From sequence record OR896830.1: a DNA stretch of 64,000 nucleotides, one strand, 5' to 3'. Below the pieces are notes generated by a model. That model saw only the letters and a program-made list of their open reading frames with translations, was not told the origin of the DNA and did no database searches. The stretch's first letter is position 1, and the number at the start of each line of letters is the position of its first letter. Below, piece by piece: positions 8,486 through 63,495 of the stretch. A program made the position numbers and the translations under genes. This stretch comes from Escherichia phage LinBro.

Positions 8486-9270
8486 TCAATACACTCGCAA
8501 GGTGTACCAGTTCTCTTATGAACTTCTCCGCATTTCTACGGAGTGTCGGACTATATCACGTAGTAGTAATACTACCGTTGCACTTGGGAATGGTCATTAG
8601 CTTACCACCCTACTCTACTCAGTTCATACATTAAGTATGCTTTTCGATAGTCTCTGAACGTTTCTCTGTTAGGAACTCTAAAATACTATTGTTTACTAAG
8701 GTATGCAATTGCTCTCTGCATATTATCAACGCTATCTGCAAGCAACCCCAAAGCCCTATTGCAATTGTGGCACAACATACCTCTTACTTTTCCGGTTTTG
8801 TGGTCATGGTCAACGACAAGTTTAGCCTTATGCCGTGAACTATTCATGATAAAACCTTCACCGCCACAAATTTGACATTTGTAATCACAGTTACGAAGTA
8901 GGGTTTCAACCTCTTCTCTTTCTAAACCATATGTTCTCAGGTAGTAATTCTTAACTCTACCTTTCTCTCCGCAATGCGAAGAACAATAAACTTGCCTTGC
9001 TGTTCTAGGCATGAACACCTTCTCACAGCTAGGACATTTCTTAGTAAGAACCCTATGTTCTGCTCTTCTGTCAAATTTTAATACGCAACTTCTGCACCGT
9101 TTTTGATTGTATTGGTATGGTTTAAACTCTGCACCACACTCAGTACACAATCTCTCTTTGTAACCTGCCATTGTCTCTCTCCTTTGCTTTAGGAGTCCTA
9201 ACAGAGACTTCGCTGCTGATTACCATATCTTTACAGACTTAGGCTTCCAGCAATTCACAACGTTTTACAT
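8477..9270 (-). mobile_element. intervening sequence in DNA polymerase gene (group I intron-like) carrying HNH endonuclease
   Basis: Polymerase motif B is split: upstream ORF ends RKKAKNGIYA...stop, downstream ORF resumes FGAGDEK; HNH ORF lies between; boundaries approximate. Confidence 0.55.
8686..9171 (-). CDS. HNH homing endonuclease
   Basis: CxxC pairs plus VVDHDHKTGKVRGMLCHNCNRALG HNH motif. Confidence 0.8.
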   Translation of the reverse strand: MAGYKERLCTECGAEFKPYQYNQKRCRSCVLKFDRRAEHRVLTKKCPSCEKVFMPRTARQVYCSSHCGEKGRVKNYYLRTYGLEREEVETLLRNCDYKCQICGGEGFIMNSSRHKAKLVVDHDHKTGKVRGMLCHNCNRALGLLADSVDNMQRAIAYLSKQ

Positions 9271-11452
9271 GCGCCACTGACGCATAAATGCCATTCTTGG
9301 CTTTCTTACGACCCTTACTAATTTCTTGAAGAAGGTTTGTATCCTGAGTAGCTCGACAAGTCAAGATATCTTCCTCTTTATTAAGGCTGAAGTAGATGCT
9401 ATTTAAAGTATGCGCATCAGTTCCTGAGTACACCACGTACAAGTCATTTTCAGAATCATAATGCAAATACTTGTCAATCTCTGGGTTTAGATACTGGTCA
9501 AAATGTTTGCAATAGTATCTGCCATCCTCTTGTTTGACAAACTCAACTTCTTCTTTACCCTCTGTCACTGCTTTGGTGAACTCTTTATCACCCATAAAGT
9601 TACACAGCAGTACAAGTTGCGCGCTATTCATATCTGCTGAAACAATATTAGTTCCTTCTTCACAAGTCCACACCTCCCTCATAGGTGCTCCATAGACAGC
9701 AGCACCAGACGGTACGTTTACAATACCATATTGTGTCATACGTCCAGTTGAAGTACCAAACACCATTGCACCAGCACTAAGGCGACCATCAGGACGAATC
9801 TGGTTCAACCAACCTTTTTCATCATCTTTTGAGTTCTCAATAGTTCTGCGTCGGTGCATTAAAGTATAGTACTTAGCAATCTTCTGTCCAAGCTCACCTT
9901 CAATCGTATCATAAGATGATTCAGTAAGTTTTGGTGAAGTACGGATTAAGCAAGGCTCAAGCAAATCTGTGTACTTCTTCACAGACCAGTTATGCTCAAT
10001 GTACTGTACACCTTCATGTTCAACATAACTCAAACCACACCGCTCAACCATTTCCTGCCACTTAGGATGCTTTGTAATCATCTTTTTATTGTCTTTGAAA
10101 CGACAAACTTTAACAGGGCGACCATCTGAGTCTTTCTTGTAGTTCCAGTCATCTGGAATCCAACCAACTGATTTCAAGTAGTCTTTAACAACTGCTACCT
10201 GAGTCATACGAGAAACTTCGAACTCAATTGGTGTATATGGTGCATCAATCAAACCTGTGTAGCGACTTGACTCAAGTTCAAAGTGATTGACAACGTGACT
10301 GTTATAGTACTTCACAGTCTTGACTGTTTTTACTGGTTTCCAGTCTTTGCATTTTTTGCCAATCTTTGCATTCAACTCGTTGCAGATTGCACGAGCATCC
10401 TTCATCGCTACAAAACCCTCTTTGTACTCTTCACCAGTTACAGAGTTGGTTGGTGTATAGCAATTTCTCTTTTCAATGTTAAAAATCTTTGTAGTTGGCT
10501 TACCAAATGGTTTGATTTCATAAGTCTGCATCTCACCATTACGTACCTGCTGACGGTACTTTGTCTTAGGGTACTTGGTAATTCTCTTCAGTCCATCTGC
10601 ATGACCAAATGTTTCAACATACTCATTCCAAGCTTTTGCAAACTCTTCTCCAGTCACTTTACCTTTGGTCTTAATAGTTGGAGGTAGATGTGGTTCAACC
10701 TCTGAAGCAAGCTCATTAGTCAACTTGTCAAGTTCCTTTACATGGAACTCCATAAGCTCCTTATCAGCTTTCCAACCATTGATAGCTTGTTGACTCATCC
10801 AGAAAGATGTTTCTTTAGCTCGCATATAGGTTTCATAAGTATCTATGCCACACTTCTTAAGCTTGAGATACTCATTATCAAGTGCCCGTTTAGTTTTGGC
10901 GTTAATACGGATATCTTCTACAACACGAGTGAAGATTTCTGCATTCCACACACCCCAATGTTCAATCTCTGGTTTACGGACACCAACACGAGCACCCCAT
11001 GCAGCCAAACCATGAGCACCTTTATAACCCTTTGGGGTTGGCCTATCCATCCACTGAACACGAGACTGGATAAGAGAATCCTGAAAGAAATTACTCCACG
11101 GCTTACATTTTGGATTATCAAAGTTCCATAAATCAGGCGCAATGTGATTGAAAACCCACCAGTCATAGCCGAGACCATTATGGATGCAAAGACGTTTTGC
11201 CTTTAACGCAAATTCAACACCTTCACGTAAGCCGCCCTTGATGTACTTAGTGTACTTGTGACCGAGGATAGGTTCATCTGTAAAGACCCATACAGGTGGC
11301 TCTTCATCATCAGATTTATAGTCTGCGAAAGCCATTACGTGCACTTTAGTGAACTCAAGGAGTAAACCATCAGTTTCTGTATCACCAACCAAATGTAAGT
11401 TTTTAAAATCTACGTTTTCCATTTTTACTCCCTCTAAAATCATTAACCTCAT
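9239..11452 (-). CDS. DNA polymerase (family A), N-terminal segment with 3'-5' exonuclease domain
   Basis: Exo I motif DTETDG near N-terminus, motif A-like ADMNSAQL, motif B start RKKAKNGIYA; last ~10 codons probably intron-encoded. Confidence 0.9.
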   Translation of the reverse strand: MRLMILEGVKMENVDFKNLHLVGDTETDGLLLEFTKVHVMAFADYKSDDEEPPVWVFTDEPILGHKYTKYIKGGLREGVEFALKAKRLCIHNGLGYDWWVFNHIAPDLWNFDNPKCKPWSNFFQDSLIQSRVQWMDRPTPKGYKGAHGLAAWGARVGVRKPEIEHWGVWNAEIFTRVVEDIRINAKTKRALDNEYLKLKKCGIDTYETYMRAKETSFWMSQQAINGWKADKELMEFHVKELDKLTNELASEVEPHLPPTIKTKGKVTGEEFAKAWNEYVETFGHADGLKRITKYPKTKYRQQVRNGEMQTYEIKPFGKPTTKIFNIEKRNCYTPTNSVTGEEYKEGFVAMKDARAICNELNAKIGKKCKDWKPVKTVKTVKYYNSHVVNHFELESSRYTGLIDAPYTPIEFEVSRMTQVAVVKDYLKSVGWIPDDWNYKKDSDGRPVKVCRFKDNKKMITKHPKWQEMVERCGLSYVEHEGVQYIEHNWSVKKYTDLLEPCLIRTSPKLTESSYDTIEGELGQKIAKYYTLMHRRRTIENSKDDEKGWLNQIRPDGRLSAGAMVFGTSTGRMTQYGIVNVPSGAAVYGAPMREVWTCEEGTNIVSADMNSAQLVLLCNFMGDKEFTKAVTEGKEEVEFVKQEDGRYYCKHFDQYLNPEIDKYLHYDSENDLYVVYSGTDAHTLNSIYFSLNKEEDILTCRATQDTNLLQEISKGRKKAKNGIYASVAHVKRCELLEA

Positions 11453-17290: not shown

Positions 17291-18331
17291 ATGGAGAAGT
17301 ACACATTAACAAAGCTTCCCGATTCAGTTACACATGTCTTTATTGACTCTGACAGCATTGCCTATAAAGGTGCTTGTGTAGTTGAGAAAGCAAAGTATAA
17401 ATACGTTAATAAACTCACCGCAGAAGAATCTGAGCCATTTGATAATGCAAAAGATGCTGCAAGATGGTTAGCAGACCAGAGAATCCTTGTAGAAGAGCTT
17501 GGCCTAGCATTTGATGAAGATGAATGGGAAAGACAGACTTGGAAAGAAGCTAAGAGTGAAAAAGAAGCTATCATGGCTACTCAGCAGGTTCTTCAGGAAT
17601 GGCTTAAGGTTGTTGGTAAAGAAAGAACTTGGGTAGGTTATTTAACAGAGAAGGGCGTGCATAAACATAAAGACATTAAAGGTCTTGAGCACCAATATCA
17701 AGGTAACCGTAAAGATGCTGTCACACCAACACACTTAGTTGCTTGTCGTGAATACCTTCTGTCAAGACCAGAGTTCAAACTGATTCTTGATGGATTTGAA
17801 GCCGACTCTATCGTTATTGCTAAAGCTGAAAAGATGGGTAAAAAGGCTGCCTTGATGAGTATTGATAAAGACCTTCGCCAAGCTGAAGGGACTTACTGCA
17901 TTGATATGACCTATGAGAAGTCACCTTTGATTTTCATTGCTGACAACAACGTAGGTGAAATTTGGGATTGCCCAATAAAATCAACACCAAAAGCTAAGAA
18001 GACAGTTGGTGTAGGTTTTAAATTCCTTTGTTATCAAGCTGTGGCTGGTGACAATGCTGATAATTATTTTGGTTTAAAGGGCGTTGGTAAGGCTACTGTA
18101 ATGAAAGCCCTTGAAGGTAAAACCACTTACAAAGAGTGTCTTGATGCAATTTATGAGCTTTATGCTAAGAAAGAGTCATACACTTATGTCTCGTGGGATG
18201 GTCAAACAATTACCAGAACACCTTTAGAGTTAATGCAGCAACACTTTTTCTTAGCTTATCAGGAAAGAAACAAGAAAGACGATTTCACTTTTAAGAAATA
18301 TAATTGGGAGCCGTGTATGAATGAAGATTAA
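17291..18331 (+). CDS. 5'-3' exonuclease / flap endonuclease
   Basis: H3TH-like GDNADNYFGLKGVGKAT and N-terminal acidic DSDSIAYK cluster. Confidence 0.65.
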   Translation: MEKYTLTKLPDSVTHVFIDSDSIAYKGACVVEKAKYKYVNKLTAEESEPFDNAKDAARWLADQRILVEELGLAFDEDEWERQTWKEAKSEKEAIMATQQVLQEWLKVVGKERTWVGYLTEKGVHKHKDIKGLEHQYQGNRKDAVTPTHLVACREYLLSRPEFKLILDGFEADSIVIAKAEKMGKKAALMSIDKDLRQAEGTYCIDMTYEKSPLIFIADNNVGEIWDCPIKSTPKAKKTVGVGFKFLCYQAVAGDNADNYFGLKGVGKATVMKALEGKTTYKECLDAIYELYAKKESYTYVSWDGQTITRTPLELMQQHFFLAYQERNKKDDFTFKKYNWEPCMNED

Positions 18332-18818
18332 AGGATTTGGCAATTGCCCCACCTACGGTCATTGGGTATCTTTATGTGGGGAAGTTGACCCCACTAAACA
18401 TTTTGGCTTTGTCTACCTAGTGTACTGCAAAAAGACTGGACAGTATTATTTGGGTAAAAAACAGCTTAACAGTGTGACCAAAAGAAAAGTTGCTGGGAAG
18501 ACTCGGAAGAAGGTAGTCACTAAGGAGAGTGATTGGATGACTTACGAGACTTCTTCTGAGTATATTAAAAAAGATATTGAGAGTTTTGGAAAAGAATTTT
18601 TTGACTTTTACATTATTCAGACCTACTACACAAAAGGTGGCCTAGTCTATGGTGAAGCAAACCTTCAACATAAATTCGATGTAATGACAAAAAGGATTGA
18701 CTCTAAGCTCAGACTCTTCTACAATGCCAATATTGCAGCAATTAAGTTTATCACTAAAGAAACTTATGAAGATGCTGAAAAAAGAATCCATAAGGTCATG
18801 AAAGCAAATTGTGCTTGA
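18321..18818 (+). CDS. GIY-YIG-like nuclease
   Basis: FVYLVYC...QYYLGKK resembles GIY-(10)-YIG spacing, with downstream Arg. Confidence 0.35.
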   Translation: MKIKGFGNCPTYGHWVSLCGEVDPTKHFGFVYLVYCKKTGQYYLGKKQLNSVTKRKVAGKTRKKVVTKESDWMTYETSSEYIKKDIESFGKEFFDFYIIQTYYTKGGLVYGEANLQHKFDVMTKRIDSKLRLFYNANIAAIKFITKETYEDAEKRIHKVMKANCA

Positions 18819-20497: not shown

Positions 20498-22732
20498 ATG
20501 ATTAAGACAATTAAAAAATCAAACGGTACAGTAGTAAGCTTTGACCCAGAAAGACTGAATAAGTGGGCATCATGGGCAGATAAACGTGGGATTATCTGGT
20601 CAGAAGTCACTATGGAAGCCATGAAACGTGTTTATGAGGGTTGCACTACAAAAGAGATGCACCAAGCCATGATTGATGTTTGTGTTGATAAACAAACTCA
20701 AGAGTACTCAGATATGGCTGGACGACTGCTTTTGGGTATTATCTACAAAGAAGCCTTTGGAGGCTTTACTAAGGTTCCTACGCTGGTTACCTTCGTTAAA
20801 AATATGGAGAGAGCAGGACTTTGGGAGAAGATGGATTATTCACAGGAAGAGCTTGAATACCTGCAAGGTTACATCGTACACTCAAAAGATATCTCTTACG
20901 GTTATGCAGTCTTGAAACAGTTCAGAGACAAGTATGGTATCCGTGATATTAAAACGGGAAGACTTTTTGAGTCACCACAATTTATGTTTATGGGTATGGC
21001 TATGAAAGCTTTTGAGAAGCAACCAAAGCACCGTAGACTGCAAGATGTTATCAAGCTGTACACTTATCTATCTGACCTGAAGATTAATGCTCCCACACCT
21101 TATTTAAACGGTTTAAGAGCTACTAAATCAGGTTATGCGTCATGCTGTTTGATTAAGGCGAATGATACTGCTGAATCTCTAGGTATTGCTGCAAAGGTTG
21201 CCTATGACATGACCACAAAGCAAGCTGGTATTGGGATGCTGATGGAGACTCGCACTATTGGTGATGGCATCCGTCAAAATACTATTGAACACATGGGTAA
21301 GCTGCCTTATTATAAGCTTGTACGTTCATCTGTAGAGGCAAACAAACAGAAGAGTCGTGGTGGTTCAGCTAATAACTTCTACACTGCTCTAGACCCGCAG
21401 ATTGAAGATTTACTGCGTTTGAAGCACCCTACAACGGTTCCTTCTAAACGTATTAATGAGATGGACTACTCATTCGGCACAAACGATTATTTCTGGCAGT
21501 GTGTTCAGTATGATACAGATTGGTTGCTATTCTCTTACAAAGATGCACCAAAACTCTATGACATGTTCTACACAGCATCTGCTGATGAGTTTGCTATGGC
21601 AGTTGGTCACGCAGTACATACAGGAGTTAAGCACAGACGAGTAAAGGCTCGTGAAATTGCTAAGCTGTTTATTCAACAGCGTTATGCTACAGGTCGTGTG
21701 TATCCATTCTTCACTAACAATGCAAACACACATACACCATTTAAAGAACCATTGAAGATGTCAAATCTTTGTATGGAAATTGTATTGCCAGTGTATGGTT
21801 TTGAGAAAGAGACAGACCTTTACAGAGACGATGCTGTGAAAGAGGATGGTGAGGTGGCTCTTTGCTTCCTAGCTAGTTTGGTTGCAGGGAGAATTTCAGA
21901 AGATGAATACGCTGACGTTGCTTATTATGCTCTTGCAATGGTTGACTCCGTTATTGACCTTATGGATTATCCGTATCCGTCGATGCGTAACCATGTTCAG
22001 AAGCGTCGTTCTGTTGGGATTGGCCTTACAAATGTGGCTCATTACCTTGCGAAGAACTACGTGAACTACTCTTCACGAGCAGGTAAAACGAAACTTCATG
22101 AACTTGCAGAGATGCACTCTTACTATCTGCATGAAGCCTCTCTGAGACTTGCTAAAGAGCGTGGCGTTCCAGAGTACATGAAGTTCACTAAGTATCCTGA
22201 AGGCTGGGTTCCTCCAAAGACAGCTAACAAGAAGATTGATGAAAAGCATGATGCAAAACTACGATATGATTGGGATGACTTAGCACAACGTATCAAAGAA
22301 AATGGTGGAATCCGAAACTCTGTATTAGAAGCTTACATGCCTAATGAGAGTTCTTCACTAGCAACTAATACGACAAACGGCTTGTACCCAATTCGTGACT
22401 TTATTTTAACTAAAAAGTCTGCAACCGGTAACGTACTGTTTATTGTTCCAGATTATGAAGAACTGAAGTATGTCTATGAAATTGCTTGGGATATTGACAC
22501 CTTTGATATGATTGATTGTTATGCAATTGTTCAAAAGTTCACTGGTCAGGCTATCTCTTCAGACTTCTATGTTGACTATGCAAAGTCTAAGAAGGTATCA
22601 TTGGCTCAAGCTTTGAAGTACATGATTTATGCCAACTCGGTAGGTATGAAAACCATGTACTACCTTAACAGTCGCATTGGTGTAGGTAAATCTGCACTGC
22701 AAGATGCTTATTGCGAGGGTTGTGGTGTTTAG
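20498..22732 (+). CDS. nrdA: ribonucleotide reductase class I alpha subunit
   Basis: N-terminal ATP-cone, active-site NLCMEI, C-terminal YCEGCGV. Confidence 0.9.
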   Translation: MIKTIKKSNGTVVSFDPERLNKWASWADKRGIIWSEVTMEAMKRVYEGCTTKEMHQAMIDVCVDKQTQEYSDMAGRLLLGIIYKEAFGGFTKVPTLVTFVKNMERAGLWEKMDYSQEELEYLQGYIVHSKDISYGYAVLKQFRDKYGIRDIKTGRLFESPQFMFMGMAMKAFEKQPKHRRLQDVIKLYTYLSDLKINAPTPYLNGLRATKSGYASCCLIKANDTAESLGIAAKVAYDMTTKQAGIGMLMETRTIGDGIRQNTIEHMGKLPYYKLVRSSVEANKQKSRGGSANNFYTALDPQIEDLLRLKHPTTVPSKRINEMDYSFGTNDYFWQCVQYDTDWLLFSYKDAPKLYDMFYTASADEFAMAVGHAVHTGVKHRRVKAREIAKLFIQQRYATGRVYPFFTNNANTHTPFKEPLKMSNLCMEIVLPVYGFEKETDLYRDDAVKEDGEVALCFLASLVAGRISEDEYADVAYYALAMVDSVIDLMDYPYPSMRNHVQKRRSVGIGLTNVAHYLAKNYVNYSSRAGKTKLHELAEMHSYYLHEASLRLAKERGVPEYMKFTKYPEGWVPPKTANKKIDEKHDAKLRYDWDDLAQRIKENGGIRNSVLEAYMPNESSSLATNTTNGLYPIRDFILTKKSATGNVLFIVPDYEELKYVYEIAWDIDTFDMIDCYAIVQKFTGQAISSDFYVDYAKSKKVSLAQALKYMIYANSVGMKTMYYLNSRIGVGKSALQDAYCEGCGV

Positions 22733-22787: not shown

Positions 22788-23045
22788 ATGAAAGATTTAA
22801 TAGAAAAACATGAGCGGCCTATATACTTGCTCCACAAGCCTCGGAAAACGATGTACTATGTTAGTAGCACAGATATGATGATAAAACAAAATGATGACTC
22901 ATGGGTTGCTGGTATCTCTTACATCTCTACAGCAGATGGTAAAATATACGCAAGACCTTATGAGATGTTCAATGAAGAAAATTGGGAAGTTTTAGACAGA
23001 AAACAAGCCTTAGAAATGATAAAGAAAGGAGAAATCACACTATGA
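22788..23045 (+). CDS. hypothetical protein
   Basis: ORF 22704..23045 trimmed to ATG with GGAGAG RBS. Confidence 0.4.
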   Translation: MKDLIEKHERPIYLLHKPRKTMYYVSSTDMMIKQNDDSWVAGISYISTADGKIYARPYEMFNEENWEVLDRKQALEMIKKGEITL

Positions 23046-24115
23046 TTAACCAGCACCCAATCTTTTTAGGTGGTGAGAGAAAAACTTTTGACTCACTTAA
23101 TAAACACTACCCAAAAATCTTTGAGCTTTATAAGCAACAAAAAGCACAAGACTGGTCAGAAGATGAGTTCCCTTTTGAACAATCACGTCTTGATTTTGAG
23201 AGTGTCCCAGCATCAATGTCAGGTGTAATGCTTGAGATTCTTAAGTGGCAGTGGGAAGCAGATACCCAAGTTGCTAAGAGCTTGGCATTTGCCTTCGCAC
23301 CATTTATCTCTGATGACATCTATGCAACTGCAATTATGAAGCAGTCTGAGATTGAAAACCTACATGCTCTTACTTACTCAGAGATTGTAAGGCAATGTAT
23401 TAAAAACCCTGAAACAATCTTAGATGAGATTAACCAGAATGTTGCTGTGCAAGACCGATTAAAAACTGTGAATCGTGTTCTTGAAGAATTACTGGATGAA
23501 GGTATAAACTATCGTCTGAATTATGTTCGTGATTCACTTCTGGACAAAGACCCTTTACACTTCCATAAAGTGATTCTGAAAGGGCTGTTTGCAGTGACTG
23601 CACTTGAAGGTATATCTTTTATGGCATCATTTGCATGTACTTTTGCACTTGATGCTCAAGATAAATTTCAGGGTATTGCTCAAGCTGTCCAGAAAATTAT
23701 GCTTGATGAAATCCTTCACACTAAAATTGATATTGAAGTTTTAAAAGAAACTTTAAGAGATGATGAGTGGCAGAAAGCTTTTCAACAGATTCTTCCAGAG
23801 ATTAAAGTAATCTTAGATGAAGTAGTTGAAAGCGAAGAAAAATGGTCGTATTATATCTTCTCTGAAGGACGTGCTGTAGTTGGTTTAAATACAAAGCTTC
23901 TTCATGAGTGGGTTTACTATAATGCCGCCCCACTGTACGATATGTTTGGCATTCCCAGAGATTTTGTAGCTCCTAAAGAACCACCTTTGAAATATATGAT
24001 TAAAAAGATGGAAATTGATAAAGAGCAGAATGCTAATCAGGAGCAACAGAACGGTGCGTATTTATTGAATACTGTTGTAGATGACTTAAATAGTGGATTT
24101 TTAGAGGTTCCTTAA
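23042..24115 (+). CDS. nrdB: ribonucleotide reductase class I beta subunit
   Basis: Start taken at ATG with AAGGAG RBS (MINQHPIF); ferritin-like helices; directly downstream of nrdA. Confidence 0.85.
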   Translation: MINQHPIFLGGERKTFDSLNKHYPKIFELYKQQKAQDWSEDEFPFEQSRLDFESVPASMSGVMLEILKWQWEADTQVAKSLAFAFAPFISDDIYATAIMKQSEIENLHALTYSEIVRQCIKNPETILDEINQNVAVQDRLKTVNRVLEELLDEGINYRLNYVRDSLLDKDPLHFHKVILKGLFAVTALEGISFMASFACTFALDAQDKFQGIAQAVQKIMLDEILHTKIDIEVLKETLRDDEWQKAFQQILPEIKVILDEVVESEEKWSYYIFSEGRAVVGLNTKLLHEWVYYNAAPLYDMFGIPRDFVAPKEPPLKYMIKKMEIDKEQNANQEQQNGAYLLNTVVDDLNSGFLEVP

Positions 24116-24357
24116 TGACTTATGTAATTTACTCCAAAACTGGATGCCCTCAGTGTGAGACTGCAAAGAATTTTGCAAAAGCTCGTGGTATTGACCATGT
24201 TGTGAGAATGTTAGGGCAGGATTATGAACTATCAGACCTGATAGATATTGCACAGATGCCAGTTCGCCAGATGCCATTCATCATGAAAACGGATGGTCAA
24301 AATCTAAAACCTGTTGGAACGCTACAGAATTTTATGACAGAGGTGAATAATGCTTAA
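24115..24357 (+). CDS. nrdH: glutaredoxin-like protein
   Basis: 80 aa with CPQC redox motif near N-terminus. Confidence 0.7.
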   Translation: MTYVIYSKTGCPQCETAKNFAKARGIDHVVRMLGQDYELSDLIDIAQMPVRQMPFIMKTDGQNLKPVGTLQNFMTEVNNA

Positions 24358-24604: not shown

Positions 24605-25804
24605 ATGAACAAAGTACAGATTATTAAAAAGAATGGCTCACTTGAAGAACCCGATATCAAAAAAGTTTTAGCAGCAGTAACTAAGTCAGCTAACAGGGTT
24701 GGATATAAAGAACTTCCACCAGATGTTACCCAAGCTCTTGAGTCAGCATTTATGAGGATTCTGGTAAAGTCCACTAAGCAGAATAATTTGCTCATCTCGG
24801 TAAATGATATTCACAGTATTGTTGAGGGTGCTTTGGCAGAAGTCAATCACGAGATTTATGAGTCTTACTCAACATATAGAAATTACCGTAAAGAGGTTGC
24901 TCAAAATTGGGACGAGCTTTACCAAAAGACTAGGGATACACTCTTCTTAGGTGACCGTGAAAATGCTAACTTTGACAGTAGTTTAATTTCTACAAAAGGC
25001 TCAATTATTCGTGGTTACTTGACTAAAGAAATCTTTAAACAGTACCATTTAACACCAGAGGAACTTGAAGCCATTGAAAAAGGGTTTATCTACATCCATG
25101 ACTTAAGAGACCTAATTTTTGGTGGTATCAACTGTTGCCTGTTTGACATCGGCAAAGTACTGAAAGGTGGCTTTGAAATGTCTGGTATCGAATACTGTGA
25201 ACCAAAGTCTGTGCTGTCAGCCTTACAGGTTATTGGTGATGTAGTTCTTTCAGCAACTGCACAGCAATTTGGTGGCTTTACTTTAGCAGAGATTGATAAG
25301 GTACTTGTGCCGTATGCTAAAAAATCTTTAGTGTACCACTCAGAGAAAGCTGAAGAGTACGGAATCCCTAAAGAGCAACACTATAATTACGTAATGGAGC
25401 AATTACAGAATGAGTTAACACAAGGTTTCCAATCTCTTGAAATGAAACTCAACACTGTTCCTTGCAGTCGCGGTGATTTTGCATTTACTACTCTGACATT
25501 TGGCCTGTTGGAACCAGATATGCACAATGAAGATAACCGTCTTCAGTTTATGATTGCTAATACAATCCTTAATGTAAGGATGAACGGGCAAGGGAAAAGC
25601 AAAAAACCTGTTGTTTTTCCTAAACTTGTGTATATCTATGAAGAGACAAGACATAAACTTGATGTATGCCAAGCAAGGTTGTTTGAAAAAGCTATTGAGT
25701 GTTGCTCTAAAGCGATGTATCCAGATTTCTTAAGTGTATCTGGTCATGGTGCTGTAGCAGATGCTTTTGAGCGTTCTGGTAAGGTGATTTCACCGATGGG
25801 TTAA
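24605..25804 (+). CDS. nrdD: anaerobic ribonucleotide reductase, N-terminal segment
   Basis: ATP-cone-like N-terminus; ORF terminates without the Zn ribbon and glycyl-radical region, which resume downstream. Confidence 0.8.
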   Translation: MNKVQIIKKNGSLEEPDIKKVLAAVTKSANRVGYKELPPDVTQALESAFMRILVKSTKQNNLLISVNDIHSIVEGALAEVNHEIYESYSTYRNYRKEVAQNWDELYQKTRDTLFLGDRENANFDSSLISTKGSIIRGYLTKEIFKQYHLTPEELEAIEKGFIYIHDLRDLIFGGINCCLFDIGKVLKGGFEMSGIEYCEPKSVLSALQVIGDVVLSATAQQFGGFTLAEIDKVLVPYAKKSLVYHSEKAEEYGIPKEQHYNYVMEQLQNELTQGFQSLEMKLNTVPCSRGDFAFTTLTFGLLEPDMHNEDNRLQFMIANTILNVRMNGQGKSKKPVVFPKLVYIYEETRHKLDVCQARLFEKAIECCSKAMYPDFLSVSGHGAVADAFERSGKVISPMG

Positions 25805-26522
25805 CAAGCTCTATAGCTCATCTAAAACGTGCCTAAACAGGGAAACTCTACAGATGTAGACAATCCTGTGCTAAATGATGTACGATGTAAGAAACTATAC
25901 AACATAGGAGTCTTACATGCCAAACTATCACGTCACTGAAGATGGAAAAGTCTTTAGGGAAAATGGTGTAGAGCTTACGCAGTGGAAATCCAACACTGGG
26001 TATATGAAAGTGAGGTTTTACGGTAAGAAGAATCGTGACATGTATGTCCACAGGTTAGTTGCTGAGAAATATGTACCTAACCCGAACAATCTTCCAATTG
26101 TAAAACATAAGGACGATAACAAACTAAATAACCACGTATCTAACTTAGAATGGGGTACTCATTCTGATAATGCTAAAGAAGGTTATGAGAATGGATGTTA
26201 CAAGTTCCACAAGCGTTCATATGCCGTGAAAGCCACACACAAAGTGACAAAGGAAGTTATTGTTACTAAGTCAATACGAGAGTTATCCAATATACTTGGA
26301 TACAATCGCAAGACCATCTCTTCAATATTGAAGGGTGTAAAAGAGCATAATAACTTCGAATATGAGTTTGAATACATCTAAATGCCGAACGACTAACCGT
26401 GATGAATGTAGCGGTGTAGGGTCAAGCGACTCGAAATGGTACGCTACTTAGAAATAAGTAGAAGATATAGTCTGGACTTACTGGCGACAGTAAGCAGCTT
26501 GAATAAAGCGGGGTAAGCTTAG
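25790..26522 (+). mobile_element. intervening sequence in nrdD (group I intron-like) carrying HNH endonuclease
   Basis: Splits nrdD between two ORFs; downstream frame open from 26523; HNH ORF inside; boundaries approximate. Confidence 0.55.
25917..26381 (+). CDS. HNH homing endonuclease
   Basis: VHRLVAE...VKHKDDNKLNNHVSNLEWGTHSDN HNH_3-type motif. Confidence 0.75.
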   Translation: MPNYHVTEDGKVFRENGVELTQWKSNTGYMKVRFYGKKNRDMYVHRLVAEKYVPNPNNLPIVKHKDDNKLNNHVSNLEWGTHSDNAKEGYENGCYKFHKRSYAVKATHKVTKEVIVTKSIRELSNILGYNRKTISSILKGVKEHNNFEYEFEYI

Positions 26523-27491
26523 CGAACTTACCTGAACAATAAGTGTAGAGCATTTTTATCACCATACCATAACGAATATGGTGAAGAGTTTTATGTAGGT
26601 CGTGCTAACATTGGTGCTGTATCTTTGAACTTACCAATGATTTACCAGTATTCTAAAGAGAATGGTTTAGATTTCTGGAAAGAGCTTGATAAGTACCTAG
26701 AGATGATTCGCAGCTTCCACAAGAAACGCTACGAAATGATTGCTAATATGCCAGCAAGCTCTAACCCTCTTGCATTCACACAAGGTGGCCTGTACAAAGG
26801 GACTAAGAAATCTACCGACAAGGTTGGCTGGGATATCGTGAAGTCCTTCACAGCTTCTTTTGGAGTTACTGCGCTTGATGAGCTATCTGTTCTTGCTGAA
26901 GGTAAACGACTTCATGAAGTTGGGAGCTATAGTTTTGCATACGATGTTCTGGCATACATCAACATGAAAACTGAAGAGTTTAAAAATGAAGATGGCTTCT
27001 TATATGCTGTCTATGGTACTCCAGCAGAATCACTTTGTGGAACTCAACTAAAACAGTTCAGAGAAATGTTTGGTGTTATCAAAGGTGTTTCTGACAAGGA
27101 ATACTTTACAAACAGTTTCCATATGAATGTTGCAGCAGACATCTCACCATTTGAGAAGCAGGACTTAGAAGAGCCATTCTTCCATATCTGTAGAGGTGGC
27201 AGAATCCAGTATGTCAGGGTAGCTAACCCAGAAAACTTAACAGCACTTAAGAGTTGTATTACAAGAGGGATGTTGAAAGGTTTTTATCAGGGACTTAACT
27301 TTGACCTAGCAATTTGTGAGCATTGTGGTAGCAGACCAAAGGCTGATGTTGAAGAATGTGAGGTTTGCCATTCACATGACATCTCTGTGATTAACAGGGT
27401 GTGCGGATATCTGGGATGGACTAAGATTAAAGGTGAATCCCGAATGAATGATGCAAAAATCGCTGAGATTCGTGACAGGATTTCTATGTAA
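26523..27491 (+). CDS. nrdD: anaerobic ribonucleotide reductase, C-terminal segment
   Basis: Zn ribbon CEHCGS...CEVCHS and glycyl-radical-like RVCGYLG near C-terminus; no canonical start, frame open from 26523. Confidence 0.8.
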   Translation, partial: RTYLNNKCRAFLSPYHNEYGEEFYVGRANIGAVSLNLPMIYQYSKENGLDFWKELDKYLEMIRSFHKKRYEMIANMPASSNPLAFTQGGLYKGTKKSTDKVGWDIVKSFTASFGVTALDELSVLAEGKRLHEVGSYSFAYDVLAYINMKTEEFKNEDGFLYAVYGTPAESLCGTQLKQFREMFGVIKGVSDKEYFTNSFHMNVAADISPFEKQDLEEPFFHICRGGRIQYVRVANPENLTALKSCITRGMLKGFYQGLNFDLAICEHCGSRPKADVEECEVCHSHDISVINRVCGYLGWTKIKGESRMNDAKIAEIRDRISM

Positions 27492-27499
27492 AACTTGAC

Positions 27500-27540
27500 A
27501 AGGTGATGTGGGTCTTGATAGGCTTACATCACCTTTTTTA
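27500..27540 (+). terminator. rho-independent terminator
   Basis: AGGTGATGT...ACATCACCT hairpin then TTTTTT. Confidence 0.6.
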
Positions 27541-27645
27541 TTGGATGTCAGACATGGCAGAGAGTATTATCGGTTTGTTCATAGGTTCTGTCTTACTAGG
27601 ATTCTTTTTAGGACTTTCTTATTGTGAATTGAGAGATAAGTTAAA

Positions 27646-28297: not shown

Positions 28298-28783
28298 ATG
28301 AATTACATGGAGATTAGACCATTTGACACAGCTAATGGTGAAGGGGTTCGTGTAAGCCTCTTCGTAGCTGGCTGTAAACATCACTGTGAAGGCTGCTTTA
28401 ACAGGGAGTCTTGGAAGTTTAATGCTGGTAAAGTATTTACTTATGCAAACCTCTACGGCATCATTAAGTTAATGGATGATGAGGCCATCAGTGGGTTGTC
28501 AATACTTGGTGGGGAGCCTCTGGATGATAGAAACATTCAAGAGGTCACCAACATATGCAAACGTATTAAAACTGTTTATCCAGAAAAGTCTATATGGCTT
28601 TGGACAGGTTTTCAGTTACACGAAAAAATTCACTTAGATGTGATGAAATATGTTGACGTAGTGATTGATGGTAAGTATGATTCATCTAAACCAACAGTTA
28701 AACCTTATCGTGGTTCTGATAACCAAAACCTCTGGAGAAAAGAGTATGGGTGGCAAGGTGATTGTCAATGGCGAGCAGAATGA
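28298..28783 (+). CDS. nrdG: anaerobic ribonucleotide reductase activating protein
   Basis: Radical-SAM cluster CKHHCEGCFN near N-terminus; 161 aa. Confidence 0.8.
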   Translation: MNYMEIRPFDTANGEGVRVSLFVAGCKHHCEGCFNRESWKFNAGKVFTYANLYGIIKLMDDEAISGLSILGGEPLDDRNIQEVTNICKRIKTVYPEKSIWLWTGFQLHEKIHLDVMKYVDVVIDGKYDSSKPTVKPYRGSDNQNLWRKEYGWQGDCQWRAE

Positions 28784-30193: not shown

Positions 30194-30464
30194 AGAGAAG
30201 TGGGAGATTTTACCATTAGTCAGTGAAGGCGGTAATGGTTGTGAAATGTACATGATACGTGGGCATGTTCCAGAACCAATTGCACTTGAGATGGTAAACA
30301 ACTTTACAGATGGCTCTTACAAAGACTTAGGGGAGCCAAATATAAAGCAGCAATGGGTAAAGCCTGTACCAGACAGCACAGGTAACTGTAGTGTACTTTA
30401 TCACGTTGTAGACCCTGCAAAATGCAAATCTGCAATGGCAGTAACAAACGTAACTTTTGATTGA
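30186..30464 (+). CDS. hypothetical protein
   Basis: 92-aa ORF. Confidence 0.4.
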   Translation: MAKEKWEILPLVSEGGNGCEMYMIRGHVPEPIALEMVNNFTDGSYKDLGEPNIKQQWVKPVPDSTGNCSVLYHVVDPAKCKSAMAVTNVTFD

Positions 30465-30475
30465 GAGAGAAAACT

Positions 30476-31357
30476 ATGAAAACTGTTATTGAAGCCGTCG
30501 TCACCGCTCAAGAGAAATTCTTCCACACAGAAAAATTTAATATCATTCAATTCCCATCTGGAGAAATTGGTGGAAACTTCTCTGAAGATTTTGTTAAGTT
30601 TACTGAGCGTAATGCTGGTAAGATTGATAATGTTATAATTACTGTACAGGGATATGACAAAGATACACTGTTTGCATTAGCTTTGGCTAAGGATGCCGTT
30701 GACAGTCTTGTTCCCCAGAAATCAGCGATGAAAACCGTTGTTTTCGGGTTCTTACCAAATGCTCGATATGACCGCCACATGTTCAAAGGTGATGCAGCAG
30801 CACTGAAAGCCTTTGCCAACCTAGTTAATGCAATGGGTTTTGATGCAGTATGTGCTCTTGACCCTCACAGTAATGTTGCAGAAAACTTATTTAAGTGCTT
30901 TCAAAGCATGAAGCAAAAAGATGTGGCAGTACACTTTGCAAGTGACCCACGCATTGATTTCTTGGTAGCCCCAGATGCAGGTGCAGCTAAGAAGACTGAA
31001 GATACCGCTAAAGAGGTGGATAAGCCGTATATCACAATGTCTAAGGTGCGCAATCTTAAGACTGGAGAAATCACTGGTATGCGAATCCTTGACGATGTTG
31101 ATTTGACCGATAAAACTGTCATGATTCTTGATGATATCTGTGATGGTGGTCGAACATTCGTAGAGGCAGCTAAACACCTACGTGAAGCAGGTGCAAAACG
31201 TGTGGAACTCTATGTAACTCATGGTATTTTCTCTAAAGGTGTTGAAAACTTACTTGACAACGGTATTGACCATATCTACACTACAAACACTTTAGGCGAA
31301 GCTAAAGACCGTGGCTTAACACATTATGGTCAAGTTACTGTAGCAAACATTGATTAG
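30476..31357 (+). CDS. ribose-phosphate pyrophosphokinase-like protein (Prs family)
   Basis: PRPP-binding type motif MILDDICDGGRTF; start moved from TTG to first ATG. Confidence 0.65.
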   Translation: MKTVIEAVVTAQEKFFHTEKFNIIQFPSGEIGGNFSEDFVKFTERNAGKIDNVIITVQGYDKDTLFALALAKDAVDSLVPQKSAMKTVVFGFLPNARYDRHMFKGDAAALKAFANLVNAMGFDAVCALDPHSNVAENLFKCFQSMKQKDVAVHFASDPRIDFLVAPDAGAAKKTEDTAKEVDKPYITMSKVRNLKTGEITGMRILDDVDLTDKTVMILDDICDGGRTFVEAAKHLREAGAKRVELYVTHGIFSKGVENLLDNGIDHIYTTNTLGEAKDRGLTHYGQVTVANID

Positions 31358-31365
31358 GTAACAGT

Positions 31366-31857
31366 ATGAATAAGGGTTATTTTGAAAGATACCTAATATA
31401 TGAACCAGATACAGGTTTATTAATTTGGAGAGTAACCCTTTGCAGTACCGCTATTGCTGGTAATGTGGCTGGCACAAGGTCTAAGAAGGGTTATATCCAA
31501 GTCCAGATAAATAAGAAGAGGTACTATGCACATAATATTGCATGGATTATGTCTGGAGGTGAGATACCAAGTGGATATGAGATAGACCACATAGACCTTG
31601 ATAAATCTAATAATAAGTTGGAGAATTTAAGACTTAGCACAAAGTCACAAAATCAGAGGAATAGGGGTATATACAAGAATAATAAAACTGGTGTGAAGGG
31701 TGTAAGTTTTTGTAAACAAACAGGTCTTTACAAAGCAAGAGTCATGCTTTACCATAAAGAATACTTTTGTGGAAGATTTAAAACGGTAGAAGAAGCAAAA
31801 GAAGCTGTAATTAAAAAGCGAATAGAACTTCATGGTGAGTTTGCAAGACATAACTAA
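31366..31857 (+). CDS. HNH homing endonuclease with AP2-like DNA-binding domain
   Basis: YAHNIAW...EIDHIDLDKSNNKLENLRL HNH core then GVKGVSF...GLYKARV AP2-like segment. Confidence 0.8.
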   Translation: MNKGYFERYLIYEPDTGLLIWRVTLCSTAIAGNVAGTRSKKGYIQVQINKKRYYAHNIAWIMSGGEIPSGYEIDHIDLDKSNNKLENLRLSTKSQNQRNRGIYKNNKTGVKGVSFCKQTGLYKARVMLYHKEYFCGRFKTVEEAKEAVIKKRIELHGEFARHN

Positions 31858-31871
31858 GAGAGAGGTAAAAT

Positions 31872-33653
31872 ATGAGTAAGTCACTTTACGCAGTACCAGC
31901 AGGTCTTAATGCAGATGCTTACAAGGCATCACATATATATCAGTATCCAGATGCTACGCAATATCTTATGTTGAACCTGACACCACGTAGTGATAAATGG
32001 TTTAACAGCCCCTTAGCAATTGACGGTGTAGTAGCTTTTGGTATTCAACGTTTCGTTAAAGATTACTTGATAGACCATTGGAATGCTACGTTCTTTGAAC
32101 GTGACAAAAAAGAAGCAATTGACGAAATCTTAGAAGTCATGAATGGTGTTCTGGGCAAAGATGCTATCGGTCGAGAGCATTGGGAGGCACTTCACGACTT
32201 AGGTTATCTACCAGTTGAAGTATACGCTGTAGAAGAAGGCACAGTTGTCCCTATGCGTGTTCCGATGATTGTTTTCCAGAACACTGTTTCAGGTTTCCAT
32301 TGGGTAGCAGGTTATCTGGAAGATGCTTTCTCTGCTGAGATTTGGAAGGCTTGTACCATTGCAACTATTGCATTGCACTACAAACGTATCTGTAAGAAGT
32401 GGGCTGACCTTACTTGTGACAACGACTTGCATTTGCCTTATCAGTGCCATGACTTTGCTATGCGTGGTATGTCCGGCTTTACTGATGACGCATTTAACGC
32501 TGTAGGCCACTTAACCAGCTTTAAAGGAACTGATAGCTTCCCTGCTGTGTATACGGCTAAACGAATCTATGGACAGTCCTACCCAATCTCTGATATTGGT
32601 AGCTCTGTACCAGCCACTGAGCACTCTGTAATGTGTGCAAACATTGCTTGGGAAGGTGGTAATGAGTTGATTGAAGAAGAAAGACGCTTTAAAGGTGAGT
32701 TACAGACCTTCCGTCGTTTCTTAACAGAAACTTACCCAACTGGTATTGCAAGTATTGTTTCAGACACTTATAACTTCTGGAGAACTGTGTCAGAAATCTT
32801 ACCAGCACTTCGTAAAGAAATTATGGAACGTGATGGTAAGCTGGTAATTCGCCCTGACTCTGGAGACCCTGTACATATTGTCACAGGCTATAAAGCAATC
32901 CACTTAGAGTGTGCTAAGAAGGCTTATTATGAGCACCTAAGCAAGCTGGAAGCTAGTGACACAATGTTGAATGCTGTTCTGAACATGAAGCTTGAAAACA
33001 TCAACTATGGTATTGCTGGATGGCTACTGTCAGAAGGCTACGAAATGGTTGTTGACAGAGAAGACTTTGAAGTTGCTGATACAGTGATGTTGAAAAATGC
33101 TTATATGGTTGGCTCTGCAAACGTTGTAACACGTCCTGTAGCAGAGATTGATGGAGCTATTAAGACCCTGTACAACATCTTCGGAGGGACTATTAACTCT
33201 AAAGGGTTTAAGGTACTGGATGAGCACATCGGCCTTATCTATGGTGACTCTATCACGCTGGAACGTGCAAACGAAATCCTGAAGCGTCTGTATGAAATGG
33301 GTTTTGCAAGCTCTAACGTAGTGTTTGGTGTAGGCTCTTACACTTACCAGTACATGACTCGCGACACCTTTGCATTTGCTGTCAAAGCAACTCTTGCAAG
33401 CATTGGTGGTAAAGAGATTATGCTTGCAAAAGACCCTAAAACAGATAGTGGTGTTAAGAAATCTGCCTTTGGTGGTGTAGCACCTATGTGGGATGGTGAT
33501 AAGCTGAAAGCTGTAGATGGCTATGGATTCCAGAGTTTTGCAGATGTACTTGACCACCAAGCTTGTGCTTTACGTTTAGTCTTTAGCGACTCTGAGCAGT
33601 TCGGTTATACAACTCTTGGAGATATTCGAAATAATATTGACAAGCAGCTTTAA
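31872..33653 (+). CDS. nicotinamide phosphoribosyltransferase family protein
   Basis: 593 aa; judged Nampt/NadV-like from overall resemblance, no single diagnostic motif verified. Confidence 0.6.
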   Translation: MSKSLYAVPAGLNADAYKASHIYQYPDATQYLMLNLTPRSDKWFNSPLAIDGVVAFGIQRFVKDYLIDHWNATFFERDKKEAIDEILEVMNGVLGKDAIGREHWEALHDLGYLPVEVYAVEEGTVVPMRVPMIVFQNTVSGFHWVAGYLEDAFSAEIWKACTIATIALHYKRICKKWADLTCDNDLHLPYQCHDFAMRGMSGFTDDAFNAVGHLTSFKGTDSFPAVYTAKRIYGQSYPISDIGSSVPATEHSVMCANIAWEGGNELIEEERRFKGELQTFRRFLTETYPTGIASIVSDTYNFWRTVSEILPALRKEIMERDGKLVIRPDSGDPVHIVTGYKAIHLECAKKAYYEHLSKLEASDTMLNAVLNMKLENINYGIAGWLLSEGYEMVVDREDFEVADTVMLKNAYMVGSANVVTRPVAEIDGAIKTLYNIFGGTINSKGFKVLDEHIGLIYGDSITLERANEILKRLYEMGFASSNVVFGVGSYTYQYMTRDTFAFAVKATLASIGGKEIMLAKDPKTDSGVKKSAFGGVAPMWDGDKLKAVDGYGFQSFADVLDHQACALRLVFSDSEQFGYTTLGDIRNNIDKQL

Positions 33654-63398: not shown

Positions 63399-63491
63399 GG
63401 AAGATTAACCCTAAAAGGTAAGGGAGCAGTTTGCTAAACTGCCAGTAGCTGAGAAATCGGTGTACCAGTTCAAGTCTGGTATCTTCCTCCA
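63399..63491 (+). tRNA. tRNA-Ser (anticodon GCT), long variable arm
   Basis: Acceptor GGAAGAT/ATCTTCC perfect, anticodon stem GCAGT/ACTGC, loop TTGCTAA, long arm, T-arm ACCAG-TTCAAGT-CTGGT. Confidence 0.75.
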
Positions 63492-63495
63492 ATTT

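Follow-up and report, generated by a model that had tools for sequence, protein, structure and literature searches.

Organization of the nrdD locus

The anaerobic ribonucleotide reductase gene nrdD of Escherichia phage LinBro is divided between two reading frames with a gene for an HNH endonuclease in the gap, which raises the question of whether the intervening sequence is removed from the transcript as an intron or separates two independent genes. The stretch analysed here (64,000 nt, record OR896830.1; the window) is from a Felix O1-like phage (Felixounavirus), which also encodes nrdA (20498-22732) and nrdB (22982-24115). A preliminary description of the window had proposed that nrdD is split by an HNH-bearing intervening sequence of about 730 bp. 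Reading frames, Pfam matches and the empty site of phage Felix O1 agree with the interruption, yet its exact size is 742 nt (Table 1).

The N-terminal reading frame (24605-25804, 399 amino acids) ends with TAA at 25802-25804. It matched ATP-cone and positions 1-246 of 562 of NRDD in Pfam and comprises the ATP-cone and the N-terminal half of the class III reductase barrel. As had been described, it stops ahead of the zinc ribbon (CEHC...CEVC) and the glycyl-radical loop (RVCGYLG), both of which are located in exon 2. The downstream frame is open from 26523, following TAG at 26520-26522, and the observation that it lacks a canonical start there was correct, the earliest start codon being TTG at 26625. 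Translation from 26544 yielded matches to NRDD 264-560 of 562 and to Gly_radical.

The boundaries were derived from an alignment with the uninterrupted nrdD of Felix O1, which lacks exactly these 742 nt and reads ...CCGATGGGT|TGCAGAGC... (...ATGGGT|TGC...). This fixed the insertion point at GGT|TGT. Exon 1 ends with CCG ATG GGT, coding for Pro-Met-Gly of the finger loop, and exon 2 opens with TGT for the cysteine aligned to Cys290 of T4 NrdD. Hence the element is inserted between Gly289 and Cys290 (T4 numbering) of the finger-loop motif P-M-G-C, with 290 being a count taken from the alignment of spliced NrdD and T4 NrdD. We take Cys290 to be the radical cysteine of T4 NrdD (Logan et al. 1999). 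A literature search under the T4 label "Cys290" returned nothing; the finger loop of NrdD is described as bearing the critical cysteine and a nearby Met (PMC4493059).

Removal of the insertion in silico restored an uninterrupted, in-frame nrdD of 2145 nt with no internal stop, which is also the length of nrdD in Felix O1, C600M2 and VpaE1. The predicted product of 714 amino acids aligned to T4 NrdD (1H78) without a gap over the junction (SPMG|CRAFLS versus SPMGCRSFLS; E = 3e-78). An exact-sequence look-up in a protein collection gave no entry for the spliced LinBro protein; that of Salmonella phage Meda was found.

The intron of T4 nrdD was considered as an occupant of the same site. This was rejected because the T4 intron lies within the codon for Tyr180, which is 109 codons further upstream. 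Thus the earlier proposal of a recurrent insertion target applies to nrdD as a gene rather than to this particular site. The segment 26381-26520, which had been called GC-rich, has a GC content of 45%, compared with 37% in the HNH reading frame, 38-40% in the exons and 38.8% in the window. The difference is real, but small and no larger than the variation within the exons, as parts of exon 2 reach 50%, and GC content was discarded as an intron signal.

Table 1. Features of the nrdD locus of LinBro, in positions of the window
Feature	Position	Strand	Basis and remarks
nrdD exon 1	24605-25801	+	399 codons; ORF list, Pfam, boundary from Felix O1 alignment
P1, 5' exon strand GAUGGGU	25795-25801	+	sequence; RNAalifold; paired in 93.8% of cells, 7 introns
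Predicted group I (IA2) intron, 742 nt, without P2	25802-26543	+	absence from Felix O1, RF00028 matches, structure and covariation
Internal guide sequence CUCUAUA-GCUCAUC	25809-25822	+	25816-25822 for P1, 25809-25815 for P10
Ribozyme core, 5' half	25828-25882	+	partial Rfam match 25837-25920, RNAalifold, pair counts
P3, 5' strand	25828-25833	+	5' core half
P4	25837-25842 with 25864-25869	+	5' core half
P5	25847-25851 with 25856-25860	+	5' core half
P6	5' strand 25870-25871, 3' strand 26384-26385	+	both core halves
P6a	5' strand 25877-25882, 3' strand 26373-26378	+	both core halves
Hairpin, 8-bp stem 25885-25892 with 25911-25918	25885-25918	+	MFE -9.8 kcal/mol
Predicted HNH homing endonuclease, 154 aa, I-HmuI-like	25917-26381	+	Pfam HNH_3; full-length I-HmuI match
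Ribozyme core, 3' half	26373-26543	+	Rfam match 26314-26494 containing GAAGAUAUAGUCU; RNAalifold; pair counts
P7	5' strand 26391-26395, 3' strand 26468-26472	+	written as pseudoknot; invariant in 7/7
P7.1	26396-26400 with 26411-26415	+	3' core half
P7.2	26419-26423 with 26428-26432	+	3' core half
P3, 3' strand	26438-26443	+	3' core half
P8, GAAA loop	26444-26450 with 26455-26461	+	3' core half
P9, GCGA loop	26473-26483 with 26488-26496	+	3' core half
P9.1	26497-26500 with 26506-26509	+	read by eye only
P9.2	26511-26517 with 26527-26533	+	3' core half
Terminal G	26543	+	invariant in intron alignment
nrdD exon 2	26544-27491	+	315 codons; Pfam, T4 NrdD alignment, motifs
Exon-2 patch co-segregating with the intron, ~48 nt	26544-26591	+	six aligned alleles and record counts
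Terminator-like hairpin, 16 pairs, then T-run	27500-27545	+	just past nrdD stop; consensus scan only

Structure of the intervening sequence

The suspicion of a group I intron was examined with Rfam. At the gathering threshold, which is 50 bits for RF00028, a scan of the whole window reported tRNAs only, and the intron showed only at a permissive threshold, where both core halves matched RF00028 with scores of 33.1 bits (26314-26494) and 15.6 bits (25837-25920). The low scores are due to the reading frame of 465 nt in P6a, which splits the core and with it the model. A natural allele from phage IME338, in which the reading frame is deleted, passed the threshold with 55.9 bits (E = 4e-12) over the full model (1-253). 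Trimmed for comparison, the intron of IME338 and its flanks differed from LinBro at only 5 of 274 positions.

The fold was further analysed in an alignment of seven introns (LinBro, IME338, JSE, navn, Vibrio 184E37.1, T4 td and T4 nrdD) from which the reading frames had been trimmed by hand; the T4 nrdB intron was excluded because its 5' half was too divergent for reliable alignment. RNAalifold recovered P1, P3, P4, P5, P6, P6a, P7.1, P7.2, P8, P9 and P9.2, with compensatory changes in 32 of 65 pairs. When P7 and P10 were added, 95.1% of the cells were paired compared with 34-42% in controls with the partners slid. Changes on both sides were seen in 36 pairs, and none of 500 shuffles reached the observed values. 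Since identity among the Felixounavirus introns amounts to 92-100%, the covariation stems from only five more distant relatives, i.e. JSE, navn, Vibrio 184E37.1, T4 td and T4 nrdD. The group I fold expected from the preliminary description was thus found, and with covariation in its support.

In P1 the end of exon 1 pairs with GCUCAUC (25816-25822), with the last exon base forming the wobble pair U25801·G25816, which was kept in six of the seven introns. P10 is formed by the first seven nucleotides of exon 2 (UGUAGAG, 26544-26550) and CUCUAUA (25809-25815). All seven base pairs are present in LinBro, whereas P10 is weaker in the relatives with 73% paired over the set. P7.1 and P7.2, paired in 97-100%, have aligned counterparts in the T4 td and nrdD introns. 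Subgroup IA2 is marked by these two extra helices, which follow the 5' strand of P7 and precede the 3' strand of P3. Taken together, we conclude from the sequence that 25802-26543 is very probably a mobile, self-splicing group I (IA2) intron with an HNH reading frame, residing in nrdD.

The HNH endonuclease gene

The HNH gene noticed earlier in the gap was confirmed by an HNH_3 match of 39.8 bits at a cutoff of 24.8. It is looped out of P6a such that its last two sense codons (UAC AUC) make up the 3' strand of this helix. NUMOD1 scored 17.6 bits, below the cutoff of 22.8, but the C-terminus still aligned to that of I-HmuI, the intron-encoded HNH nicking endonuclease from the DNA polymerase gene of Bacillus phage SPO1. 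LinBro residues 3-153 aligned with residues 12-170 of I-HmuI (PDB 1U3E) from end to end, covering the HNH motif and the C-terminal DNA-binding region. With 39.7 bits (E = 5e-9) the relationship is a distant one, and the two enzymes have different target genes. In the catalytic motif HKD..N..NN..NL.W.T...N, HKDDNKLNNHVSNLEWGTHSDN of LinBro aligned to HKDGNKDNNLSTNLRWVTQKIN of I-HmuI.

A hairpin at the start of the reading frame adjoins the Shine-Dalgarno sequence AGGAG (25906-25910), and its stem takes up the first two nucleotides of the start codon. Its z-score was -3.5, and none of 200 shuffles was equally stable. The wider fold of the leader (25870-25935) was not significant with z = -1.6, in contrast to the tighter hairpin alone. 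Counterpart hairpins over the Shine-Dalgarno sequence or AUG of the JSE, navn and Vibrio introns had z-scores of -2.6 to -4.0. To go by PMC2988022 and the reference list of PMC2993671, hairpins that sequester the ribosome binding site are a known theme in T4 intron and free-standing endonuclease genes. The hairpin of LinBro probably limits how much endonuclease is translated from the nrdD pre-mRNA. A scan for sigma-70 promoters in the intron returned 9 sites, compared with 9.7 expected from shuffles.

Alleles of nrdD within the genus

The genus is polymorphic for the insertion, with empty, full and ORF-deleted alleles of nrdD. The 5' core of the intron was found in about 91 related records, 60 of which carry the form with the full reading frame, the rest being a 316-nt form that arises by an in-frame deletion of 426 nt from the reading frame and leaves the ribozyme intact. 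Empty alleles were counted in approximately 180-200 further records.

The sequence directly downstream of the insertion site differs between the two kinds of alleles. Intron-less C600M2 is 97-100% identical to LinBro over nrdD, but only 85% identical in the 60 nt past the junction. Compared with alleles that lack the intron, the patch in exon 2 has about 9-11 substitutions, with two amino-acid changes among them. All three empty alleles in a set of six aligned alleles had one type of flank and all three intron-bearing alleles the other. Among the records, 92 carried the plus-type flank (at least 90% identity) and 91 the 5' core of the intron; the association thus rests on the six alleles and on matching counts, not on a record-by-record comparison. 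At least one phage, allfine, is an exception and bears the intron with a flank that is only 84% identical. The patch may represent a co-conversion or an immunity tract.

Splicing versus other readings of the locus

Might nrdD be a gene in pieces, whose unspliced message gives rise to residues 1-399 and a C-terminal fragment that assemble into the enzyme? Such an arrangement has a precedent in Aeromonas phage Aeh1, where nrdA, likewise a reductase gene interrupted by an HNH endonuclease gene (mobE), is functional as two assembling polypeptides without a ribozyme (PMC3653736), and most GenBank records do give two NrdD coding sequences and no intron, with exon 2 starting at TTG 26625 or its equivalent. 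LinBro, however, has a complete, covarying ribozyme with a guide that pairs with both exon ends, and the ribozyme stays intact in alleles that have lost the endonuclease. Moreover, no start codon for exon 2 is found at the junction, and a start at 26625 would forfeit 27 residues including the cysteine aligned to Cys290. We consider this reading very unlikely.

Just as improbable is a dead intron, i.e. an inefficient ribozyme in a decaying nrdD pseudogene that is tolerated because of the class Ia enzyme NrdAB. As nrdA and nrdB are encoded, NrdD may be dispensable in air, and the score of LinBro below the Rfam threshold would suit a degenerate core. Yet this score is accounted for by the reading frame in P6a, as seen with the ORF-less allele, and pair counts showed every core helix of the LinBro copy to be intact. 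Both exons are open, and codons differing from Felix O1 nrdD are synonymous in 138 and non-synonymous in 41 cases. Furthermore, the intron of Escherichia phage Alf5 is 100% identical to that of LinBro while the entire region 24605-27491 is 96.8% identical.

Phage ribonucleotide reductase genes are frequent hosts of inteins and of free-standing homing endonuclease genes (PMC3653736), but an element of another kind is by far the least credible reading, since the TAA directly after exon 1 and an HNH frame that differs from the one shared by both exons exclude an intein, Rfam matched the group I model and none for group II introns, and a bare endonuclease cassette would not be flanked by 277 nt of conserved, non-coding ribozyme.

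Proposed mechanism of splicing and homing

We therefore favor the view that a group I intron is spliced from the nrdD message. According to the model the transcribed RNA would fold into the P1-P10 ribozyme, whose guide would keep both exon ends in place, GAUGGGU of exon 1, with the U·G wobble at the point of cleavage, and UGUAGAG of exon 2. Exogenous guanosine docked in P7 would attack after U25801, and exon 1 would next attack after the terminal G26543. The ligated message with the junction ...CCGATGGGT-TGTAGAGCA... (AUGGGU-UGUAGAG) would code for the NrdD of 714 amino acids. In mixed infections the I-HmuI-like enzyme may nick intron-less nrdD near the insertion site, and recombinational repair would transfer the intron, along with about 48 nt of exon 2, to the empty allele. 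The hairpin at the ribosome binding region of the reading frame would keep translation of the endonuclease low. Splicing, activity and specificity of the endonuclease and its translational control are deduced here from sequence. Our literature search found neither a published ribozyme structure or splicing test nor experimental data on splicing or endonuclease activity for the Felixounavirus nrdD intron.

Discussion

The nrdD intron is already known biology, and current understanding is unchanged by it. In the GenBank record of Salmonella phage Meda (MH586731) the exons are joined at the very junction derived here for LinBro, and splicing the Meda gene there in silico yielded its protein AXY86276.1 exactly. 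The accompanying paper states that an HNH gene interrupts the reductase gene and terms an element in the DNA polymerase gene 'another intron' (PMC6486253), which implies an intron in nrdD. A split nrdD with a homing endonuclease was also noted for UAB_Phi87 (PMC4837284).

The practical consequence concerns annotation. In public databases roughly 90 genomes contain the element, and most of them present NrdD as two fragments or begin exon 2 at a false TTG, which drops the 27 residues with the Cys290-aligned cysteine, while the correct product is that of the GGT|TGT join. In addition, a single genus offers a natural series of the homing cycle with empty sites, introns with endonuclease and introns with the endonuclease deleted, plus a visible co-conversion patch. 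Insertion exactly at the codon for the catalytic cysteine is in keeping with the rule that the best conserved parts of essential genes are the targets of homing elements.

Comparison with known introns

The closest relatives are those of other Felixounavirus members. Meda, Alf5, UAB_Phi87 and FSL SP-010 carry the 742-nt element with the same HNH protein at the same site; it is 92-100% identical to that of LinBro and shows no biological difference.

Krischvirus JSE, Vequintavirus navn and Vibrio phage 184E37.1 belong to other phage lineages, yet are interrupted at the same Gly/Cys site (...ATGGGT|TGT/TGC...). Their introns have homologous cores and an HNH reading frame in P6a with 40-53% amino-acid identity (53% being the figure for JSE; PMC4837284), while P6a, P8 and the P9.x helices diverge with compensatory changes. 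We found no papers that describe these three nrdD elements as introns; PMC2993671 mentions only the gene 43 intron of JSE.

The T4 td intron with I-TevI likewise has an IA2 core with P7.1 and P7.2. Its reading frame is also looped out of P6a and provides the 3' strand of P6a with its end, and the 3' half is about 71% identical. It differs by its host gene, thymidylate synthase, by the presence of P2 and by a GIY-YIG endonuclease.

The T4 nrdD (sunY) intron shares with LinBro the host gene, the IA2 architecture without P2 and a nearly identical guide (GCUCAUG versus GCUCAUC), and T4-like variants of it, e.g. in HY03, share a core block of 42 nt at 97.6% identity. It differs by its site in the Tyr180 codon and by the GIY-YIG enzyme I-TevII, which is located after P9 in place of an HNH enzyme in P6a. 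The LinBro ribozyme seems to share its origin with that of T4 nrdD. Such a common stock would imply that the insertion site was once switched within nrdD, e.g. when the intron reverse-spliced into ...AUGGGU in place of ...AUGAGU, and that another endonuclease was acquired thereafter; the exon-2 patch would in that case be a co-conversion tract that also makes the element immune to its own nuclease. It is quite possible, though short of probable, that these events took place and that this lineage of HNH introns is specific to Gly|Cys and crossed between unrelated phage groups, namely Ounavirinae, Straboviridae (JSE), Vequintavirinae (navn) and a Vibrio myophage.

The nrdD gene and its insertion

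The 399-aa ORF at 24605-25804 comprised an ATP-cone and positions 1-246 of the Pfam NRDD model before its TAA stop (25802-25804), with the glycyl-radical match downstream, which bears out the preliminary description of an N-terminal ORF without the C-terminal domains. The C-terminal frame was likewise found to be open from 26523; from 26544 it matched NRDD positions 264-560 and the glycyl-radical domain. The HNH endonuclease gene described for the gap is present as a 154-aa ORF for an HNH_3 protein. The region 24605-27491 matched 296 phage records; Felix O1-like phages (Felixounavirus, Ounavirinae) account for nearly all of these.

The nrdD gene of Felix O1 (AF320576) is 2145 nt long and uninterrupted. 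Alignment to uninterrupted NrdD, as had been proposed, fixed the insertion point with Felix O1 and T4 NrdD (PDB 1H78): the window adds 742 bases (25802-26543) between ...CCGATGGGT and TGCAGAGC... of the Felix O1 alignment. Joining 25801 to 26544 yielded 2145 nt with no internal stops, equal to the length in Felix O1, C600M2 and VpaE1, and the spliced product aligned to T4 NrdD without gaps over the junction. By our own count on the alignment to 1H78 the junction is Gly289/Cys290 of T4 NrdD, within the P-M-G-C finger-loop motif. Cys290 is reportedly the residue that initiates catalysis (Logan et al. 1999). The catalysis-initiating cysteine and a neighbouring Met lie in the finger loop (PMC4493059). 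Because 138 synonymous and 41 non-synonymous codon differences separate the exons from those of Felix O1, the nrdD exons look functional.

Features of the nrdD locus and of other elements in the window
Feature	Position	Strand	Remarks
nrdA			first in gene order
nrdB	22982-24115
Glutaredoxin gene	24115-24357		followed by a small ORF
nrdD exon 1	24605-25801	+
nrdD exon 2	26544-27491	+	followed by 3 small ORFs
nrdG	28298-28783
HNH ORF	25917-26381		154 aa
P1	25795-25801 with 25816-25822	+	GAUGGGU with GCUCAUC, incl. U25801·G25816
P10	26544-26550 with 25809-25815	+	exon-2 UGUAGAG with CUCUAUA; adjoins P1 guide
P2			absent
P3	25828-25833 with 26438-26443	+
P4, P5, P6, P6a			present; P6a loop houses ORF
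P7	26391-26395 with 26468-26472	+	GACUA with UAGUC
P7.1, P7.2			present
P8			GAAA loop
P9			GCGA loop; then P9.1, P9.2
Terminal G	26543	+
RF00028 match 1	25837-25920	+	P4-P6 region; 15.6 bits
RF00028 match 2	26314-26494	+	33.1 bits, E = 2e-6; spans hallmark GAAGAUAUAGUCU
ORF hairpin, 8 bp	25885-25892 with 25911-25918		z = -3.5
ORF	9239-11452	-	DNA_pol_A positions 93-184
ORF	7922-8476	-	DNA_pol_A positions 219-380
ORF between DNA_pol_A pieces	8686-9171		Endonuclease_7 domain, 69 bits
RF00028 sub-threshold match between DNA_pol_A pieces	9120-9256		28.1 bits, E = 0.004
HNH_3 gene	31366-31857	+	69.6 bits; weak AP2 match
SegE-like GIY-YIG gene	18321-18818	+	94 bits

A group I intron with an HNH endonuclease

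A default Rfam scan of the window reported no intron, because both matches to RF00028, the group I intron model, fall below its gathering score of 50. The matches, obtained in a permissive scan, cover both core halves, and their low scores are due to the ORF that separates these halves. The same intron exists in an ORF-deleted form in IME338 and about 30 other records, where an in-frame deletion of 426 nt (window 25926-26351) leaves 316 nt; the IME338 allele scored 55.9 bits over the full model. The GC-rich 3' segment mentioned earlier is real (45% GC against 37-40% around it), but the signal is weak.

The intron structure was derived by reading the window sequence. P7.1 and P7.2 are marker helices for subgroup IA. 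Seven ORF-trimmed introns were aligned (window, IME338, JSE, navn, Vibrio phage 184E37.1, T4 td and T4 nrdD), of which only five are truly divergent and all of which had their ORFs trimmed by hand. Unguided, RNAalifold recovered P1, P3, P4, P5, P6, P6a, P7.1, P7.2, P8, P9 and P9.2 from them, with compensatory change in 32 of its 65 pairs. For the full structure P7 was entered as a pseudoknot and P10 was added; standard pairs then occupied 95.1% of the cells compared to 34-42% with partners slid by 1-3 columns, both partners had changed in 36 pairs, and no observed measure was attained by any of 500 shuffles. Judged by its sequence, 25802-26543 is a group I intron; with the RF00028 matches, the fold, the covariation and the empty Felix O1 site, the preliminary reading was real and correct.

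The 154-aa protein aligned end to end with I-HmuI (PDB 1U3E; E = 5e-9), HNH motif residues included; its Pfam NUMOD1 score was under the cutoff. The 3' strand of P6a is formed by the last two sense codons of the ORF (UAC AUC), whose stop codon falls within the P6/P6a internal loop. The ORF hairpin adjoins the Shine-Dalgarno sequence and covers bases 1-2 of the AUG. The introns of JSE, navn and the Vibrio phage differ in sequence there but have equivalent hairpins covering their own SD/AUG (z = -2.6 to -4.0). By analogy, the hairpin may exert translational control as in T4 homing endonuclease genes. In sum, the element is a textbook case of a mobile group I intron of subgroup IA2 that encodes an I-HmuI-like HNH endonuclease; its splicing and homing are predicted.

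Earlier annotation

No introns were described for Felix O1 (PMC3185647), correctly so for that phage. UAB_Phi87 was recorded as having nrdD split, together with a homing endonuclease, a trait ascribed to other genus members too (PMC4837284; PMC3728262), 'two introns' figure among the ncRNAs of SPJ41 (PMC9951933), and the Meda genome note describes an anaerobic reductase large subunit interrupted by an HNH endonuclease (PMC6486253). The element is already recognised in the public annotation of a sister phage: nrdD of the Meda record is a two-piece joined CDS, and splicing the Meda sequence in silico at GGT/TGT reproduced the deposited protein AXY86276.1 exactly. Our literature search found no paper with a ribozyme structure, a splicing assay or the endonuclease activity for this intron, nor on the same-site introns of JSE, navn and Vibrio phages. 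The value of the finding lies in an annotation correction and in a homing cycle neatly illustrated by natural alleles.

Distribution and the exon-2 patch

The genus shows three states: the full 742-nt element (about 60 records), the ORF-deleted form (about 30) and the empty site (most, including Felix O1). The intron was 100% identical to that of Escherichia phage vB_EcoM_Alf5, the whole region 24605-27491 only 96.8%. Compared in 60-nt blocks, nrdD of the intron-less C600M2 was 97-100% identical to the window everywhere except in the block after the junction (85%). Among six aligned alleles this block had one sequence in 3/3 empty and another in 3/3 intron-bearing alleles, with about 9-11 differences in the first 48 nt of exon 2 and two amino acids; the 5' exon of the same alleles had no comparable fixed difference. 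The intron-type flank occurred at ≥90% identity in 92 records, a number in line with the 91 that have the 5' core of the intron. The association is imperfect because Escherichia phage allfine (MN850633) pairs the intron with a flank that shares only 84% identity with the window over the first 57 nt of exon 2, possibly reflecting a shorter co-conversion tract. The patch is what one expects homing to leave behind when co-conversion is one-sided, or what selection would produce if it favoured resistance to the element's own nuclease.

Other elements in the window and records

A family A DNA polymerase gene (7922-11452, minus strand) is apparently split, and is probably the other intervening sequence meant in the preliminary description. 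For Meda, 'another intron', ORF-less, is reported in the DNA polymerase gene (PMC6486253). The free-standing HNH_3 gene is flanked by ORFs 30461-31357 and 31872-33653; it is an insertion polymorphism, since their Alf5 counterparts, the ribose-phosphate pyrophosphokinase and nicotinamide phosphoribosyltransferase genes, are only 45 nt apart. The SegE-like gene directly follows an ORF that weakly matches a 5'-3' exonuclease. The 24 tRNA genes clustered at 58665-63568 are interspersed with ORFs 61654-62211 (DUF7338) and 62600-63397 (DUF7217); the tRNA at 60553-60640 clears the threshold only narrowly and is similar to the tRNA-Sec model. 'Campylobacter phage' records MG065664 (A132), MG065662 (A142), MG065690 (A135) and others, which match Felixounavirus/Vequintavirus nrdD regions at 92-100%, look mislabelled or contaminated.

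Related introns and comparison with T4

The same Gly/Cys site is occupied by homologous introns, whose P6a likewise holds an HNH ORF, in Krischvirus JSE (HNH protein identity 53%; PMC4837284), Vequintavirus navn (49.7%) and Vibrio phage 184E37.1 (40.6%). The navn annotation divides nrdD into at least three pieces; upstream of its HNH-bearing intron, at about 1811-2120 of its own numbering, we read by eye a second group I-like sequence, this one lacking an ORF (…GGTAAACGGT / TAACAAACTGG…GAGATAGTCTGG…).

A 42-nt core block extending from the P6 3' strand through P7 and P7.1 into the start of P7.2 (window 26378-26422) was 97.6% identical to 2501-2542 of the phage HY03 sequence. It is common to nrdD introns of some T4-like phages and introns in Vequintavirus records. 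Outside the block, identity to these introns drops to about 70-80%, a pattern suggestive of recombination among intron lineages.

The view of nrdD as a recurrent insertion target holds for the gene, but T4 offers no same-site precedent, because its intron lies 109 codons upstream, inside the Tyr180 codon. The T4 intron also encodes another endonuclease, the GIY-YIG enzyme I-TevII, located after P9 and not in P6a. Yet the T4 guide GCUCAUG and core are very near those of the window intron (GCUCAUC).
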